Source: a virus
Taxonomy: Duplodnaviria; Heunggongvirae; Uroviricota; Caudoviricetes
DNA length: 51,314 nucleotides
Strand: one strand, 5' to 3'
Virus record (IMG/VR): IMGVR_UViG_3300042259_000065
In this document: one piece after another, positions 3,071 to 32,860 of the stretch
How positions within the stretch are numbered: position 1 is the first letter of the stretch
Layout of the letters: every line of letters begins with the position of its first letter
The notes under the pieces: model-generated
Seen by the model: the letters and a program-made list of their open reading frames with translations, nothing else
The model's database searches: none
Told to the model about the DNA's origin: nothing
Made by a program: the position numbers and the translations under genes

Positions 3071-6000
3071 ATGACAGAACGTGTAAGGAGTCAGTATACA
3101 AACTTGGTTAAGTTAAAGCTTGATCAACGAAGTTTGAAAAGGACTCGTAAACAGATACAAAACTTCAGATCTGAAGTTGCTAAAATGTTAAAACTTCAAG
3201 TAGATGTTGGAGGTTTAGGTACAAGTAAAAGAGGTTCTGGTTCAAGAATAACTAAACCTTATGAAGATAAAACTAAGTTCCAAAAAGCATCTAACACCCT
3301 GCTTGCTGACCAATTAAAAATTGAAGACAAATTAGCTAAAAAACAAGAACAACGTGTTCAAATGGAACAGAATGCACGTAGGAAGCAAGCAGTAGGTGGT
3401 TTAATATCTGACGGCACTAACAAAGCATCGCAAACGGCTTTTGCTGATATGCTACGCTCCGAAAACAAAGCTAAATCACCACTACATGATTCTCATGTAA
3501 GAATGCAACGTGACCAAGAAAAGTTTAATGCTTTGCAAGAAAAGTCAATTAGAAATTTCATGGTATCTAATCGTGCGATCAGGCAGATGAGTGATGAAGA
3601 GAAAGCAGTTCTTAAACAAAAACTCATGCAAGCTAAAACTCAAGAACAGCTTATTTATCTAATGAGAAAAGAACGTGCAGCAATCTCTGATACTCTTGCA
3701 CAGAATCGTAGATTAACACGTGAAGTAGAAAAGCGTAATGTTTTCCAACAGCGTATGAACTCTTCTGTAATGCAGATGGTTGGAACGCTCGGTAGTGCTT
3801 ATGCTTTAACAGCAGGAATTAGTTCTTCTTTGAACATCGGTATGCAAATGGAATCTATGCAGAAGAGTTTCAAGGTTGTATCAACTGATTCTAAAGCAGC
3901 AGCAGAGAATATAGCTTGGGTACGTTCAGAAGCTATGCGCTTAGGTTCTCCAATCATGGAAGCAAGTAAGGGTTTCTCATCTATGATTGCTGCTGCTGGC
4001 GACAAGATGACAATGGATGACCTTAAAGCTACCTTTACAGGTATTCAAGAAGCTGGTGTTGCACTGGGTCTAAGTCGGGAAGATTTAGGTGGTACAATCT
4101 TAGCTGTTAAACAAATGCTGTCTAGACTTTTGGGCAGGGTAAACTTCTTTAATTCAGGGGAACCCCTAACATTTTAAGATGAGGGCAATCCTGAGCGAAG
4201 GTTTCACTTAAAGTGATTCAACGTGCAAAGACTATTGGTGATGAGTGTAGCCAAGTAGGGTCAAGTGACTCGAAACAGGAAGCTGTACATTGTACAGAGG
4301 ATATAGTCTGAACTTCTATGGAGACATAGAGACGCAGGTAAAGCTGCTGGCTAAGCTTAACGAACTTAGTTGAACACATTGAAAGGTAAAATACAGGCTT
4401 GATTGTAGGTCTGTCTAAACTCCTCTAATTGCTGGAAACTCTGAAGGAATTAACTAGGATATTAATTGGTAACAATTAACGAACCCTGAAAATGTTAATT
4501 ATGATTACAGACAATCAGCATCGAAGATTCCTATTGGAATAACGATCAACGACTAGAACGAAAGTTCGTAGAGTATAAGTCACATATGATACTCGAAACG
4601 GGGAGCAATCACAAGATTGAAGATATAGTCTCGACTCTGCAGAGATGTAGAGCAGCAAGTAAAGTTGCGGGAAAGAGTTTGTGCCTCTTTTTGAAGATAA
4701 CGGATGAGCTTAATGTGTAGGTTCTTTCTGCAGAAATGCAGTCAATAAAACTAATTTAATTGCTGGAAAACCCTTAGAGCTTGATAATACTAACTTAGCA
4801 TGGTAACATAGCTAAGGGCAAGTGGTAATGCACTTGGTAGAGTAAAAAGTTATCAAGATTGGGCAATCAGCAGTCAACAATCTATAACTCGAAAACAGTA
4901 GAGGTATTATGTCTATTTTTATAAATAATGAAGAAGTTAAAGTGTGTCCTAATTATCCTAATTATGGTGCAAGTAAGGATGGTAATATTTACAGATTATC
5001 CACCAAAAAGCTTATGTCAAAGATAAAAGCTTATGATGGTTATTTAGATGTTAGAGTGTGTCATGATAATACCCCTAAGTCTGTCAAGTATCATGTAGTT
5101 GTGGCAGATGCTTGGTTACCATATGAAGAAGGTAAAGATTTTATAAATCATATAAATGGTGATAAATCTGATCCAAGAGTTTCAAATCTTGAGAGATGTA
5201 CTGGTGCGGAAAATCAGAGACACGCTATAAAAACGGGGTTGAAATCTAAAGGAGAAGACCTTTATAACTCAGTACTAACAAATGATAACGTACATGAGAT
5301 TTGTAAGTTACTATCGGATGGGATAACAGTTAAAAGCCTATCAGAGATGTATGGTGTGAGTAAGGATGTTATTAGGAAGATTAAAGATGGTTCCAATTAT
5401 CACTCTATTCGAAAGTTGTACTTAAACATCCCGCATAATTACCCAAATGAATTTTCAGAATCCACTATTAGGTGGGTTTGTGAGCAGATAGTAAAAGGTG
5501 TTGCAGATAACAATATTGCGAAGTCCAGTAACAATAAAAATTTATCATCTGCTGAAGTTAAAAGAATTAGACATAAAATAAGATATAAAATTATATCAGA
5601 TGAGTATTTCATAGATTGAGATTCAGAGACTATTCCGAAAGGAAGTAGGGTGTAAGTTAATGACACTCGAAAATATTAGCCCTAAACAGGTAAAGCTGAA
5701 GGTGAAGATATAGTCCGATCTATAAGGAAACTTATAGCAGCAAGTAAAGTTGCGGAGGTGGATTTACGAACCACCTCGAACACAATGAACACAACAACTG
5801 GGAGAAAGGGTGCCCTTTGCAATGCGAGCTATGGCAAAAGCCGCTGTAGATGCAGGATTGATTGACGGAAGTAAGACAGCTCAAGAACGTGAAGCTGCAT
5901 TGTTTAAATTAATGGAACAGGGTAAGTTAATCTCTGGTGATGTTTTACCATACTTTGGTAAAGCAATGAGTGAACTTGCTAACAATAATGACGAATTAGC

Positions 6001-6766
6001 AAAAGCACTTCGTGAAAACTTGGCTCCGGCTTTAGGTCGAGCAAGTAACCACCTTGTAGACTTACAAACAAAAATGTATGATGGTATGAAACCTTCTGTT
6101 ATGTTTGCATTGGACGGTTTTAGCGACTTAGCAAAAGAAGCTAATAATGCTGCATACTTTACAGGTACTATACTTGGTGGTGCACTATTTGGTTTAACTA
6201 CAATTATTCGTTTACCAGTAGCTGCATTAACAGATTTAGCTTATTGGATCTCAGATGTAACTGGATTAAGTGATGAATCCACTAAACATTTGTTAAGTTG
6301 GACAGGAACAGTGATTGGAGCCGCCGCAGGTGTGTGGGTATTAGTTAAATCTGTAAAAGCTTTAGCTACTGCTTATAAAGTTGCAAAACGTGCAGCAGAT
6401 GCAATGAAAACTTTAACAGGAAAAGCACCAACTACGGCTGCAACAACAGCAGCAAGCACTGGCACAAGAGGTGTAGTATCAACTGCAGCAAGAGGTGCAT
6501 TAAGACAATCTGGTAAGCTACTTGGACCATTAGGTGTACTTCTCTCTGGTTATGAAGGTGGTACGAGTTTATATGATAGACTTTCTACAACTAATGAACG
6601 TAATGCTAATGTTATGCAGTGGCTTAAAGAGCGTGGTAAATTGCAAATTGACATCAACGTCAACCCTAATGGATTGGATGATGTAATCGAAGCTAAAGTT
6701 GAGAAGAGTAATGGTGATATGCTAGAAGGTGCAGCAATGAATCTTTCTTCTGGGAGTATTAAATAA
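3071..6766 (+). CDS. Tape measure protein, spliced: join(3071..4123, 4382..4399, 4703..4710, 5788..6766), 685 aa
   Basis: Joined exons restore the tape-measure motif QMLS-KGKIQA-DEL-TQQLGERVP in a single frame. SD AGGAG; Ala-rich C-terminal half with hydrophobic segments. Confidence 0.9.
4124..4381 (+). ncRNA. Group I intron TMP-I1 (258 nt, no ORF)
   Basis: 5' exon ends in U and intron ends in G. P1 CTGTCT/GGGCAG with U.G at the splice site; P10 ACTTTT/AAAGGT; P aattcagggga, Q gcaatcctgagc, R aagacta, S ggatatagtct. Confidence 0.9.
4400..4702 (+). ncRNA. Group I intron TMP-I2 (303 nt, no ORF)
   Basis: P1 ACAGGCT/GGTCTGT (7 bp); P aattgctggaaa, Q caatcagca, R tcaacgacta, S aagatatagtct; ends gaagataacG. 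Confidence 0.88.
4711..5787 (+). ncRNA. Group I intron TMP-I3 (1077 nt) carrying an HNH endonuclease
   Basis: P1 GAGCT/GGTTC; P10 TGTGT/ACACA; P aattgctggaaa, Q gcaatcagcag, R ttcagagacta, S aagatatagtcc; ends gaacacaatG. Confidence 0.9.
4909..5619 (+). CDS. Intron-encoded HNH homing endonuclease
   Basis: HVVVADAW...INHINGDKSDPRVSNLERCTGAENQRHA (HNH_3-like). Sits between CAATCTAT and ATAGATTG, i.e. in the P6 loop. Confidence 0.9.
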   Translation: MSIFINNEEVKVCPNYPNYGASKDGNIYRLSTKKLMSKIKAYDGYLDVRVCHDNTPKSVKYHVVVADAWLPYEEGKDFINHINGDKSDPRVSNLERCTGAENQRHAIKTGLKSKGEDLYNSVLTNDNVHEICKLLSDGITVKSLSEMYGVSKDVIRKIKDGSNYHSIRKLYLNIPHNYPNEFSESTIRWVCEQIVKGVADNNIAKSSNNKNLSSAEVKRIRHKIRYKIISDEYFID

Positions 6767-30003: not shown

Positions 30004-30682
30004 ATTTTTAGAGATTTTCTTTCAAGATTACTCAGATGAACCAGAGTTGAAAATACCTTCTCATTGGTGTGTGAAATATTTACCAGAAAATTCAGGTTTT
30101 GTAGATTACAGTTATCATTCAACTGAGGATGAGGCTGTTGAGTGGGCAAAGAAACATACCAACTATGAAAATGAATTTGATGAGATCATTGTACCTATTA
30201 CTAATGAAGATGCTGATAAAATCTTAGATGAGGTGTTCTCTAAAGGTTATGGTCATGCAGAAGTAATCACACCGGAAGAATGGTTTGATATTAAGAAGTT
30301 TAACTTTATCAAAGAGTCTCGTACAAACAATCTATATGACTATTTTCCTATTTGGTTTGAAGAGTTGTGTAATATCGAAGGTGTGTATCTAGCAGGTGGT
30401 AGTTTACGTAATTTACTGGGAGGTAAAGATATCATTGCAGATATTGATCTATTCTTTAATGGTGAAACTGCTTTGAAGAAAGCTGAAAACGTCATGCAAA
30501 TGTATGAAGGTAGTGAAGATGGTTGTTGGTATGAAGCATTCCGTTGTCCAGCAGGTGAATTAATTACTTACAAAACTGCAATTGACAAACCTGATGAAGA
30601 TAAGACTCCAGAAGATTATAAAAATCAACGTAAAGTACAATTTATTACCAAAAGTTTTTATGATTCACCAGAACAGTTATAA
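29996..30682 (+). pseudogene. Nucleotidyltransferase (CCA/poly(A)-polymerase-head-like), apparently truncated at the IS607 left end
   Basis: YLAGGSLR...DIDLF motif. Stops at VQFITKSFYDSPEQL*, before the downstream FDF-like motif expected in this family. Confidence 0.6.
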
Positions 30683-30750
30683 AGAAACAGAACAATAAGA
30701 ACTATTGACACAATACGCACATTATGTTAATATAACAATAGGAGGTATTT

Positions 30751-31308
30751 ATGAAGTATTACACAACAGGGCAGATCGCTAAGATGTATAATGTAGCCCC
30801 TATGACAGTGAGACGTTGGATTGAATCAGGAAAGTTTGAACATGTACAACGTACACTTGGTGGTGAGTACAGGGTAGGTGTAATAACTGAAACCAAAAAT
30901 ATATTATACGCTAGAGTATCTAGTAAAAAACAAGAGAGTTCTATTGATAGTCAATTAGAGTACCTTAAAAGTAAGGTATCAGAATATGATGAGGTTATGT
31001 ATGATATTGGATCTGGGTTCAATTTCAAAAGGAAACAATTTAGAGCCATTCTGGAAAGATGTCTTAAAGGAGAAAGTATCCGAGTTGTGGTTTCCAACCA
31101 AGACAGATTTACAAGAGTCGGTTTTGAATTCTTACAGTGGATCTTTGAAAGAACAGGAGGCTCTATCGAAGTATTGGATAAAACGGAAACTAAACAAGAA
31201 TTCGATTACGACAACCTTATCTCGTTCATCACTGTCTTCTGTAACTCTTACTACGGAAAACGCAACACAAGTCGTAACAAGAAAAATAAGGATTTACCCA
31301 AAGAATAA
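30751..31308 (+). CDS. tnpA: IS607 TnpA serine recombinase
   Basis: MerR-like HTH (YTTGQIAKMYNV...TVRRW...RTLGGEYR) plus YARVSS...QL...DIGSG...R...DRFTR. Confidence 0.95.
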   Translation: MKYYTTGQIAKMYNVAPMTVRRWIESGKFEHVQRTLGGEYRVGVITETKNILYARVSSKKQESSIDSQLEYLKSKVSEYDEVMYDIGSGFNFKRKQFRAILERCLKGESIRVVVSNQDRFTRVGFEFLQWIFERTGGSIEVLDKTETKQEFDYDNLISFITVFCNSYYGKRNTSRNKKNKDLPKE

Positions 31309-32374
31309 AGATAAATATTTGAGTTTATGTGATTTATCCAGAGCCTGCTATAACAAGATGATTGAATTTAAAATAAATTATGAATCAGATAAAAGGAAAT
31401 CACAGGAACAAAGGACTGAGGTAATGAATTGGTGCAAGCAATGGGGTAACTATCAATCACATGTTATGCAAGAAGCTTGTAGGCAGGCTGATATTACAGC
31501 TAATTCTATTATTAAAAAGAGAATGAAAGGTCAAAAGTGCGAATTTTCTTTTAGATCAAGAAAAAGTCCTGTTCAGGGATTTGATATACAAAAACTCCCT
31601 AAGAAGGGGATATACCCTAAGTTTCTTGGGGATGTACATTTTACAGAAGATGTTCCAGAGTATGCAAAAGGTAAAACAGCAAGGGTTATAACAGAGAATG
31701 GGTGTTGGTGGTTGTGTTGTTATGACACTATTAAAATCGTTAGAACAACATCAATAGACAAAGTTTGCGCTCTTGATTGTGGTGTTAGGACTTTCCAAAC
31801 TGTTTATTCACCGAGTGAAGTAGCAGAATTAGGTTCTAACTACTTCAAGGATAAACTATTACCATTATACATTAAATTAGATAAGCTAATTTCTAAAAGG
31901 AGAATACAATGTAATTTAAAGTTAGATAACCAAAGAAGCTCAGATTTAATAACTTTTTATAGTAAGAAGATAAATAAACTTCGTTTGAGAATCAAAAACT
32001 TAGTTGAAGACCTTCATAAGAAGTGTGCAAATTATTTAACAAACGAATTTGACTTAATACTGATACCTGTATTTGAAACTAAGAAGATGTCAAAACTTGG
32101 TAATAGAAAACTTAATAATAAATCCGTAAGAGCCATGTTAGGGTTGTCTCATTACAAGTTTAAAGAAACTTTGAAGTGGTTTGCTAAAAAGAAGGGTAAG
32201 CTCGTAGTAGATGTCAATGAGAGCTTTACATCCAAGACAAACCCGTTTACTGGTGAGCTTATGAATATAGGTAGTGCTAAATCATTTAAATACCTAAATA
32301 AGATTTACGATAGGGATATGAATGGTGCGAGGAATATATTCATTAAAAATACGTTGCTGTGCAACGAAGAGTAG
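30986..32374 (+). CDS. tnpB: TnpB with rearranged RuvC (pro-Fanzor/Fanzor2-like)
   Basis: ALDCGVRTF; no EDL but IPVFET; VNESFTSK; DRDMNGARNI. N-terminal LWFPTKTD extension overlaps tnpA by about 320 nt. Confidence 0.85.
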   Translation: MMRLCMILDLGSISKGNNLEPFWKDVLKEKVSELWFPTKTDLQESVLNSYSGSLKEQEALSKYWIKRKLNKNSITTTLSRSSLSSVTLTTENATQVVTRKIRIYPKNKDKYLSLCDLSRACYNKMIEFKINYESDKRKSQEQRTEVMNWCKQWGNYQSHVMQEACRQADITANSIIKKRMKGQKCEFSFRSRKSPVQGFDIQKLPKKGIYPKFLGDVHFTEDVPEYAKGKTARVITENGCWWLCCYDTIKIVRTTSIDKVCALDCGVRTFQTVYSPSEVAELGSNYFKDKLLPLYIKLDKLISKRRIQCNLKLDNQRSSDLITFYSKKINKLRLRIKNLVEDLHKKCANYLTNEFDLILIPVFETKKMSKLGNRKLNNKSVRAMLGLSHYKFKETLKWFAKKKGKLVVDVNESFTSKTNPFTGELMNIGSAKSFKYLNKIYDRDMNGARNIFIKNTLLCNEE

Positions 32375-32437
32375 GATACACTCTAATCATAACAACAAAT
32401 GTTCTATTTGTTGCGGTTTTAAGTATCAGAATTAACA

Positions 32438-32860
32438 ATGGCTCTAGAGGAAGAGTTTGATACTAAGATTCAGGTTTCTTCTTTCAAAGAATGCAAAACT
32501 GTGGAAGACATCTTTGTAACTTTTGCGGATATGTTGAATGCTAGTTGGGTGGCTCCAAAAGCTCGTGTATGCAACGTAGAGAAGATTTCTGGTGTTGAGT
32601 TAAGCAACCATACACATTTGCAACAAAACACAACTGTGAGTCATACAGGAGCTTTGGAAGATGATACCTTTATTGATGAACATTCATTTGCTTTCACAAA
32701 GATTCAATCTATAGCAAAAGAAAATAACCTCTTGCTAAGTTTCGAAGCTTCTGGTAAAGTGACTGCATATTCAGAAGAAGATGAATTTGTTGTAGAAAAT
32801 TATGAACAATTAAAGCAAGTTATGGAGGCTTTGAAAGTTTTGGATAGTTTTAGAGGTTAA
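32438..32860 (+). CDS. Hypothetical protein lacking an obvious RBS (possible 3' fragment)
   Basis: Begins 9 nt after the IS right end; no SD upstream. Confidence 0.55.
   Translation: MALEEEFDTKIQVSSFKECKTVEDIFVTFADMLNASWVAPKARVCNVEKISGVELSNHTHLQQNTTVSHTGALEDDTFIDEHSFAFTKIQSIAKENNLLLSFEASGKVTAYSEEDEFVVENYEQLKQVMEALKVLDSFRG

Follow-up and report, generated by a model that had tools for sequence, protein, structure and literature searches.

The tailed-phage (Caudoviricetes) sequence IMGVR_UViG_3300042259_000065 of the IMG/VR database, which is 51,314 nucleotides (nt) long and is referred to in its full length as the window, contains an insertion sequence (IS) of the IS607 family at positions 30677–32429. 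The element encodes a serine-recombinase transposase, TnpA, and a homologue of RNA-guided nucleases, TnpB, from the lineage of Fanzor2 and the pro-Fanzors, in which the RuvC-II glutamate occupies an alternative position (alternative Glu). The best explanation of the data, to which we assign a probability of about 0.78, is that the element is intact and recently mobile, and that it circulates among large marine tailed phages of the Vibrio and Pseudoalteromonas type. The tnpB frame opens inside tnpA. It is likely that the ordered N-terminal domain described as unique to Fanzor2 is an old feature of the whole prokaryotic and phage alternative-Glu IS607 lineage, overprinting the 3′ 60% of tnpA in the +1 frame over approximately 100–170 dual-coding codons. 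The parts of the element are as follows:

30677–32429, + strand: whole IS607-type element, 1753 base pairs (bp) with one copy of the AG junction counted; the second AG is at 30675–30676
30677–30750, + strand: left end, with a sigma-70-like promoter (TTGACA, 17 nt, TAATAT) at 30705–30733 and a strong AGGAGG ribosome-binding site before tnpA
30751–31308, + strand: tnpA, IS607 serine-recombinase transposase of 185 residues, intact, with an N-terminal helix-turn-helix (HTH) and a resolvase catalytic domain
30986–32374, + strand: long form of tnpB, 462 residues, RNA-guided-nuclease homologue of the Fanzor2/pro-Fanzor (alternative-Glu) lineage
30986–31308, + strand: predicted dual-coding zone, tnpA codons 79–185 (frame 0) and tnpB codons 1–107 (frame +1)
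31046–31108, + strand: motif PFW...LWFPTKTD (TnpB residues 21–41), overlying the TnpA motif ...AILE...VVVSNQDRFTR
31775–31777, + strand: D264, likely RuvC-I catalytic Asp, in the motif LDCG; invariant
32066–32068, + strand: P361 at the canonical Glu position (IPVFET), at least 90% conserved among relatives
32219–32221, + strand: E412, relocated (alternative) RuvC-II Glu, in VNESFTSK; invariant
32237–32311, + strand: cysteine-free replacement of the C4 zinc ribbon (residues 418–442), from the alignment to Fanzor2 structure 9b0l
32315–32317, + strand: D444, likely RuvC-III catalytic Asp, in DRDMNGARNI; R443 and D444 are invariant
32309–32429, + strand: most conserved block, the last ~65 nt of tnpB and a 55-nt tail, with a hairpin at ~32392–32414
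32430–32450, + strand: predicted guide segment in the flanking phage DNA beyond the right end, by analogy with ISXfa1 and ApmFz2 (PMC10711439, PMC11832414)

Element boundaries, mobility and the putative guide RNA

The product of tnpA matches the IS607 transposase family NF033518 with 127.2 bits (cut-off 110) as well as PF00239 and PF12728, and tnpB is positioned downstream on the same strand, as in the IS607 family. The promoter scan of the left end gave 10 of 12 matches to the consensus and a TG extension, from which the function of the promoter is predicted.

Copies of the element were traced through the TnpA protein, since the exact TnpA belongs to a seven-member cluster at 90% identity. 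Megablast detected no close DNA relatives of the element in the phage collection, and a scan of viral contigs with a single sequence detected no relatives; an alignment-based scan was required to find them. Copies L207–L210 are 98.5% identical to that of the window and have flanks distantly related to Pseudoalteromonas phage J2-1 and some Vibrio phages. Copy L213 is 94.7% identical and is inserted at a different site in a vB_CoeS_P1-like phage; the corresponding clean empty site is provided by Vibrio phage vB_CoeS_P1. Both L207–L210 and L213 match the window over exactly 30673–32429. An earlier note on this DNA, made from the sequence alone, had placed the element correctly but began it at 30751, about 75 nt after its actual start at 30677. 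The copy L010, with 76% nucleotide identity, is located in an unrelated contig. Its 5′ truncation point is 45 nt upstream of where long tnpB starts, and its similarity to the window is lost exactly at 32429.

The window is related to Vibrio phage vB_CoeS_P1 (~90% identity over the matching parts) and to G001, a 125-kb viral record with 97–98% identity. The element is absent from this sister phage, the flanks of which are 97–98% identical to those in the window. The absence of the element from a 98% identical phage and the near-identical copies at two other sites indicate that it moved recently.

The junctions are the same in all three insertion contexts. At the left, AC is followed by the AG dinucleotide, after which the element continues with TTATAAAG; at the right, the element ends in GTATC and AG, followed by the flank. 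AC precedes the left AG in three of three contexts, and G001 has GT before the right-hand AG where the right end of the window's element joins. The junctions in the three contexts and the one empty site share AG alone, with no target-site duplication beyond it, and AG is likely to be the crossover dinucleotide. TnpA would thus move the element as double-stranded DNA, with crossover at a short dinucleotide, apparently AG preceded by AC. A repeat search of the element found no end-to-end terminal inverted repeats, and the candidates for end-binding repeats were short matches at chance level. An exact 10-nt repeat, GTATCAGAAT, is present at 30976–30985, directly before the ATG of long tnpB, and at 32423–32432, across the right-end junction. 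It is left uninterpreted because a sequence of 1.8 kb should contain about one such repeat by chance.

The element is accompanied in the window by a deletion between two phage genes:

29996–30682, + strand: truncated phage gene 5′ of the element, 228 residues here and 313 in G001
32438–32860, + strand: phage gene 3′ of the element, first 46 codons gone; in G001 these codons form an acyl-carrier-like PP-binding domain, the N-terminal domain of the protein

At the corresponding locus of G001 (L003, 669–2183, − strand), 399 bp contain the 85 codons that end the upstream gene and the 46 codons that begin the downstream gene. Both ends of the 399-bp deletion are on AG dinucleotides, and 6 nt at the deletion (ACAGTT) are common to the left end of the element. 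The loss would be consistent with the element having inserted first and the transposase having then mediated an intramolecular adjacent deletion.

The 3′ end of the element contains its most conserved part. None of the last 118 nt differ from those of L213 (0 of 118), in contrast to 6.2% of positions in the region encoding TnpB alone. In comparison with L010, the block at 32309–32429 is 82–91% identical and 73–90% identical at third-codon positions, whereas the values just upstream are 56–80% and 40–60%. The hairpin at ~32392–32414 retains its pairing through changes in L010 and L015, although only four sequences were compared. We propose that the block is the 3′ core of a guide-RNA (omega/reRNA) scaffold combined with the right-end recombination site; right ends were mapped for the element's own near-identical copies. 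The guide RNA would probably derive from the last ~120–200 nt of the element and be transcribed through into the flank, which differs in each of the three insertion contexts. The tail after the tnpB stop codon, up to the mapped right end at 32429, measures 55 nt, as the earlier note had estimated. Its conclusion that the scaffold is either very compact or overlaps the reading frame holds in the second part: the conserved block spans ~65 nt of the frame in addition to the tail. A tail of 55 nt is ordinary. Published scaffolds of ~150 nt (ISXfa1) and 205 nt (ApmFz2) overlap the 3′ end of tnpB (PMC10711439, PMC11832414), and together with the single conserved block here they make an unusually compact RNA unnecessary.

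Several observations weigh against this reading of the ends and of the 3′ region. For IS607, a GG dinucleotide has been reported both as the insertion site and as the element end (PMC13565253), from which the AG junction and the element end ...GTATCAG depart; the related copy L015 may end in GG. The left flank is deleted in the window, and the original target context is therefore gone. The folds of the last 131 and 201 nt are not significantly more stable than those of shuffled sequences (z −1.5 and −1.0), and the consensus fold of the four sequences contains two short helices only. An Rfam search of the element returned no family match, and one chance-level match to an unrelated long non-coding RNA.

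According to the proposed mechanism, TnpB directed by the guide, presumably together with a target-adjacent motif (TAM) predicted to be close to ACAG, would cut phage genomes that have the empty site, and recombination with an occupied genome would restore the element or spread it. It is possible, although on balance unlikely, that the element serves mainly as a weapon against co-infecting relatives with the empty site, in the manner of free-standing homing endonucleases, and not only for its own maintenance. All three contexts of the element and its 38–40% identical relatives are in large lytic-type marine phages, the window also encodes a second TnpB and an HNH endonuclease, and non-restorative homing of this kind has been discussed (PMC13565253). 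The predicted guide matches the sister phage G001 exactly. However, the match in G001 is preceded by GGTAG and not by the ACAG of the three primary insertion sites, which makes the cutting of G001 uncertain, and the element disrupts two genes of the phage carrying it.

The N-terminal extension of TnpB inside tnpA

An open tnpB frame extends from 30959 to a stop codon that ends at 32374, and the first ATG in it is at 30986. The overlap with tnpA at 30986–31308 is in the +1 frame and encodes the FWKD...LWFPTKTD extension that the earlier note had recognized in an alternate frame of the transposase gene. In the alignment of 75 long-form relatives, conservation of residues W23 and L34 is 90% or higher, and the motif PFW...LW.P.(K/E)T(D/A) is found in phage, bacterial, chlorovirus, and giant-virus loci. 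All 63 scorable loci have an in-frame ATG upstream of the motif, which is positioned at a constant distance of ~80 codons before the core of the protein. Translation of the window's TnpB most likely begins at ATG 30986. The extension has ~100 codons in the clade of the window and ~157 codons in most relatives, where it starts close to the beginning of tnpA.

The arrangement of the two genes is nearly constant: of 149 loci that have both, 148 encode tnpB in frame +1 relative to tnpA. In the 95 loci with intact tnpA, all +1-frame stop codons are in the first 40% of the gene and none in the last 60%, whereas shuffling of synonymous codons predicts ~5.1 per gene. No depletion of stops is seen in the +2 frame (12.5 against 13.2). 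In the window, the overlap contains no +1 stop although a mean of 6.0 is expected, and 0 of 5000 synonymous shuffles were free of stops. The identity of synonymous codons in pairs encoding the same residue increases from ~0.35 at TnpA residues 1–60 to 0.45–0.60 in the overlap, and peaks over the stretch encoding LWFPTKTD in one frame and VVVSNQDRFTR in the other. Selection thus acts on both frames. In five cyanobacterial genomes, the tnpA genes beside DPG/alternative-Glu TnpBs have no late +1 stops and overlaps of 512–698 nt, whereas those beside other TnpBs have 9–16 late +1 stops and practically no overlap. As far as can be judged from these sequences, the open +1 frame is specific to the alternative-Glu lineage. 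The 5′-truncated copies L010 and that of Vibrio phage 184E37-3b (L007) retain just the 3′ part of tnpA, which encodes the extension.

The AlphaFold2 model of TnpB, calculated with the 75-sequence alignment, has a mean predicted local distance difference test score (pLDDT) of 85.4 and a predicted template modelling score (pTM) of 0.83. A Foldseek search with the model found the mimivirus Fanzor2 structure 9b0l first (E 1.4e-21), followed by ISFba1 and ISDra2 TnpB and then by Cas12f structures. Z-scores of the model against TnpB structures are 22–26, that of Fanzor2 being the highest. The structural aligner VIA superimposes residues 19–461 of the model on Fanzor2 residues 53–518 (Z 26.2), whereas other TnpB and Cas12f structures align only from residue ~93. 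Residues 53–130 of Fanzor2 form an N-terminal domain that is not seen in other TnpB structures; one part of it contacts the guide RNA and makes the RuvC fold complete, and a "thumb" clasps the target DNA beside the TAM (PMC11832414). The conserved motif of the extension (pLDDT 79–83) falls in the part of the model aligned to this domain. Most simply, the first ~100 residues of the window's TnpB would form the counterpart of the Fanzor2 N-terminal domain, including both RuvC-R and the thumb. The N-terminal 115 residues had no Fanzor2 match in a search of the sequences of solved structures, and the connection to the domain thus rests on the fold alignment of the predicted model. Segments 19–40 and 59–73 of the model are confident.

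It is improbable that the extension is untranslated, with TnpB starting at a non-canonical codon close to 31283 or, after tnpA, at Met125, and with the open +1 frame arising as a by-product of the TnpA sequence, codon usage, or an RNA or DNA signal. Automatic gene callers do start TnpB after tnpA (for example, L207 4108–5124 and L213 4108–5124), giving a product of 338 residues that is cut off before the N-terminal domain and the first strand of the core. In L010, the closest divergent copy, an ATG is present just before the core and a form of 370 residues is called. ATG 30986 is preceded by a weak ribosome-binding site (AAGG, 9 nt upstream), and residues 1–18, 41–58, and 74–88 are modelled with low confidence. 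Nevertheless, none of the codons ATG, GTG, and TTG occurs in the window near 31283, where the core begins, and a start at Met125 would delete the first WED strand (KIRIYP), which is common to all TnpB structures. The openness of the frame, the synonymous constraint, the W23/L34 motif with its constant spacing, and the upstream ATG codons are specific to the lineage, and the extension aligns with a domain that is ordered in the solved structure of Fanzor2 (PMC11832414). The short gene calls indicate that N-terminal truncation of such proteins is likely to be widespread in databases; an exact look-up of three ATG-start versions of the long TnpB found none of them in the protein collection.

A programmed frameshift fusing TnpA and TnpB was rejected: the tnpB frame is +1 and not the usual −1, and the ATG codons of the relatives themselves make a fusion unnecessary. 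No mention of the overlap of tnpA and tnpB was found in PMC10711439, PMC3627910, PMC11832414, and the 2026 review PMC13565253, nor in a full-text search of limited coverage.

The long tnpB of the window has counterparts in its mobile copies. All three contexts (window, L207, and L213) preserve the 462-codon frame, the start ATGATGAGG, the DCG motif, E412, and D444, and the region encoding only TnpB differs from that of L213 by 35 synonymous and 27 non-synonymous changes, roughly a quarter of the neutral ratio. The preservation of the frame, start, and triad, the purifying selection, and the absence of the element from the sister phage point to a working, recently moving element with an apparently intact TnpB.

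Lineage, catalytic residues, and the zinc-ribbon region

An exhaustive profile search identified 4274 relatives of TnpB at E ≤ 0.001. They occur in Campylobacterota, Alteromonadaceae, Paracoccaceae, Chloroflexota, Poribacteria, Latescibacterota, Bacteroidota, cyanobacteria, and others. Viral relatives are encoded by Vibrio and Microcoleus phages and by many uncultured viral contigs, including giant-virus bins and a chlorovirus-sized record. In the phylogenetic tree, a clade of 115 rows including the window, Fanzor2, and the cyanobacterial members is separated from three canonical TnpBs with a support of 100, although this outgroup is small and the tree contains no alternative-Glu sequences with a hydrophobic residue instead of Pro. 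A Helicobacter phage match considered as an IS607 control proved to be of the IS605 type with a divergent Y1 transposase; it was dropped from that role and kept as a tree outgroup alone. The assignment of the window TnpB to an IS607 lineage common with Fanzor2 and the pro-Fanzors, proposed in the earlier note, is borne out by the tree. The tree does not resolve the order of the phage and bacterial, cyanobacterial, and giant-virus groups at its base and so does not decide the further claim of an ancestry of Fanzor2 in this clade.

The motifs ALDCGVRTF, IPVFET in place of EDL, VNESFTSK with its Glu, and DRDMNGARNI are all present where they had been described from the sequence. Residues D264, E412, R443, and D444 are invariant among the 75 aligned relatives, and D264, E412, and D444 are likely to form the catalytic triad. 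In the alignment to 9b0l, E412 is positioned six residues before the first cysteine position of Fanzor2, which corresponds to the definition of the alternative Glu (PMC10711439). The same definition of pro-Fanzors includes DPG in RuvC-I, and the search pattern used to find them also demanded CxxC..CxxC; the members were mostly or only cyanobacterial (PMC10711439). DPG is present in 264 of 299 relatives, whereas the window and its closest copies read DCG, which is also kept in L207, L213, and L010. The window TnpB is therefore pro-Fanzor-like in its alternative Glu and its position in the tree, but it does not have the published fingerprint, since it reads DCG and lacks CxxC..CxxC. The pattern with four cysteines has missed the larger, zinc-free part of the lineage, which includes many phyla and phages.

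By sequence, the best match of the window TnpB among solved structures is the mimivirus Fanzor2 (ApmFz2 or L79; 9b0l, PMC11832414) with an E-value of 7.5e-15. The two proteins share the alternative Glu, a non-acidic residue at the canonical Glu position, the link to IS607, and an N-terminal domain before the WED strand, ordered in Fanzor2, with model residues 19–99 corresponding to Fanzor2 53–130. Fanzor2 has a C4 zinc finger, DPG, and an N-terminal nuclear localisation signal (residues 1–53), and is encoded by a virus of eukaryotes. In contrast, the window TnpB has no cysteines in the zinc-ribbon region, reads DCG, has only ~18 low-confidence residues before the domain, is ~20% identical to Fanzor2, and belongs to a bacteriophage. 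It is not a member of Fanzor2, being encoded by a tailed phage related to Vibrio phages. The pro-Fanzors, or TnpB2 (PMC10711439; PMC10530073), share with it the lineage in the tree, the alternative Glu, an IS607 TnpA, and the tnpA/tnpB overlap. They differ in their published definition by DPG, CxxC..CxxC, and cyanobacterial hosts, whereas the clade of the window occurs in phages and many other phyla. ISXfa1 (PMC10711439) and the TnpBs of ISDra2 and ISFba1 (8exa, 8h1j, 8iaz) have the same WED-REC-RuvC core (Z 22–25 from model residue ~93) and a guide RNA expected at the 3′ end of the gene, reading into the flank. ISDra2 and ISFba1 differ in having the canonical Glu and a C4 zinc finger, and no N-terminal domain.

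Homologues that are 30–38% identical are annotated as transposases in Vibrio phages 184E37-3b and F100 and as a hypothetical protein in Microcoleus phage My-WqHQDG. They contain the same N-terminal motif and have tnpA, or a remnant of it, in the −1 frame relative to tnpB. Unlike in the window, tnpA is truncated or broken in the two Vibrio phages, and the Microcoleus phage copy keeps DPG and the four cysteines. The full-length IS607 tnpA of My-WqHQDG (OR578706; L009 1444–2046) is unannotated in GenBank because a hypothetical protein of 561 residues, which is the long tnpB frame, was called across it.

In comparison with Fanzor2, the first CxxC of the zinc ribbon is replaced by N..T and the second by a shorter stretch without cysteine, so that the region contains none. 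The loss of the zinc finger noted earlier is thus real, but it is neither peculiar to this copy nor a sign of decay. The region could be scored in 217 relatives: 153 of them lack cysteine there, one or two are present in 26, and four or five in 38. A clade of 35 rows (support 100) contains the window; none of its scorable members has more than two cysteines, and the majority have none. A further large group that lacks the cysteines branches from within zinc-bearing cyanophage and cyanobacterial sequences. The loss throughout the clade indicates that it is old and shared, and from the positions of the two groups in the tree it has probably happened more than once. Structure prediction of the cysteine-free region gave block-mean pLDDT values of ~85–93.

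We regard it as the least probable of the alternatives that the loss of the zinc cysteines and the Pro-to-Cys change in RuvC-I ended DNA cutting, leaving a dead nuclease or an RNA-guided binder in an element spread by TnpA alone. The four zinc ligands are all missing, the Pro of the lineage's DPG, which is at least 90% conserved among relatives, is replaced by cysteine at position 265, and nuclease-dead TnpB derivatives such as the TldR repressors are known. The matches to protein families are uneven: PF07282 (Cas12f1-like TNB domain) scores 40.7 with a cut-off of 26.3, PF01385 scores 19.8, below its cut-off of 30.5, and the NCBIfam model NF040570 (guided_TnpB) reaches 92.7 bits, under its cut-off of 100, with a match beginning at residue 100. 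Against a dead nuclease stand the invariant D264, E412, and D444 of the clade, the lean towards synonymous substitutions between copies, and the frame kept in three contexts. The cysteine-free state is common to most relatives in many phyla and phages, which argues for a working fold; the region is confidently modelled, and zinc-finger loss has been reported in some large branches of TnpB (PMC10691335).

The host phage and implications for the lineage

The window belongs to a large tailed phage encoding a tail assembly chaperone, tape measure, baseplate wedge, tail fibre, DNA polymerase, and primase/helicase. The phage had been taken to be lytic; no tyrosine integrase was found in its relative G001, which is rated 99% complete, and a lytic lifestyle is plausible. 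A second, canonical TnpB of 368 residues (1808–2914, + strand; domains HTH_OrfB_IS605, OrfB_IS605, and TNB) is encoded between the tail assembly chaperone (906–1457) and the tape measure gene, and no transposase was noticed nearby. G001 has a related copy of it (L001), and in Vibrio phage 184E37-3b the same slot is occupied by an alternative-Glu TnpB homologue instead. The tape measure is apparently split into open reading frames at 3071–4177 and 5810–6766 (+ strand), each matching tape-measure families, with an HNH endonuclease gene between them at 4909–5619 (within 3071–6766, + strand). This may be a mobile HNH insertion or an arrangement of the intron or intein type. G001 additionally encodes a small serine recombinase (G001:C1:101796-102203, L176; open frame of 259 residues) that is separate and does not adjoin a TnpB of the alternative-Glu family.

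Judged by its sequences, the alternative-Glu lineage is far wider than the cyanobacterial set defined in 2023, as it extends over many bacterial phyla and bacteriophages and is mostly zinc-free. If its N-terminal domain is overprinted on tnpA throughout, the nuclease and the transposase would be physically locked together, and "solo" TnpBs of the lineage would have to retain a remnant of tnpA. Current annotations would be systematically too short at the N-terminus, which matters for the expression of these proteins as compact editors. For constructs of the ~460-residue nucleases, the upstream start is advisable, as databases start the proteins after tnpA. Since the element is present in different large marine phages at three sites, with 95–98.5% identity, it offers a good natural system in which RNA-guided homing between co-infecting phages could be tested. 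As regards how Fanzors arose, a domain solved in a nuclease of a eukaryotic virus would be linked to phage and bacterial relatives in which it is encoded inside the transposase gene, and this would provide a concrete, testable molecular character besides the DPG and alternative-Glu motifs.

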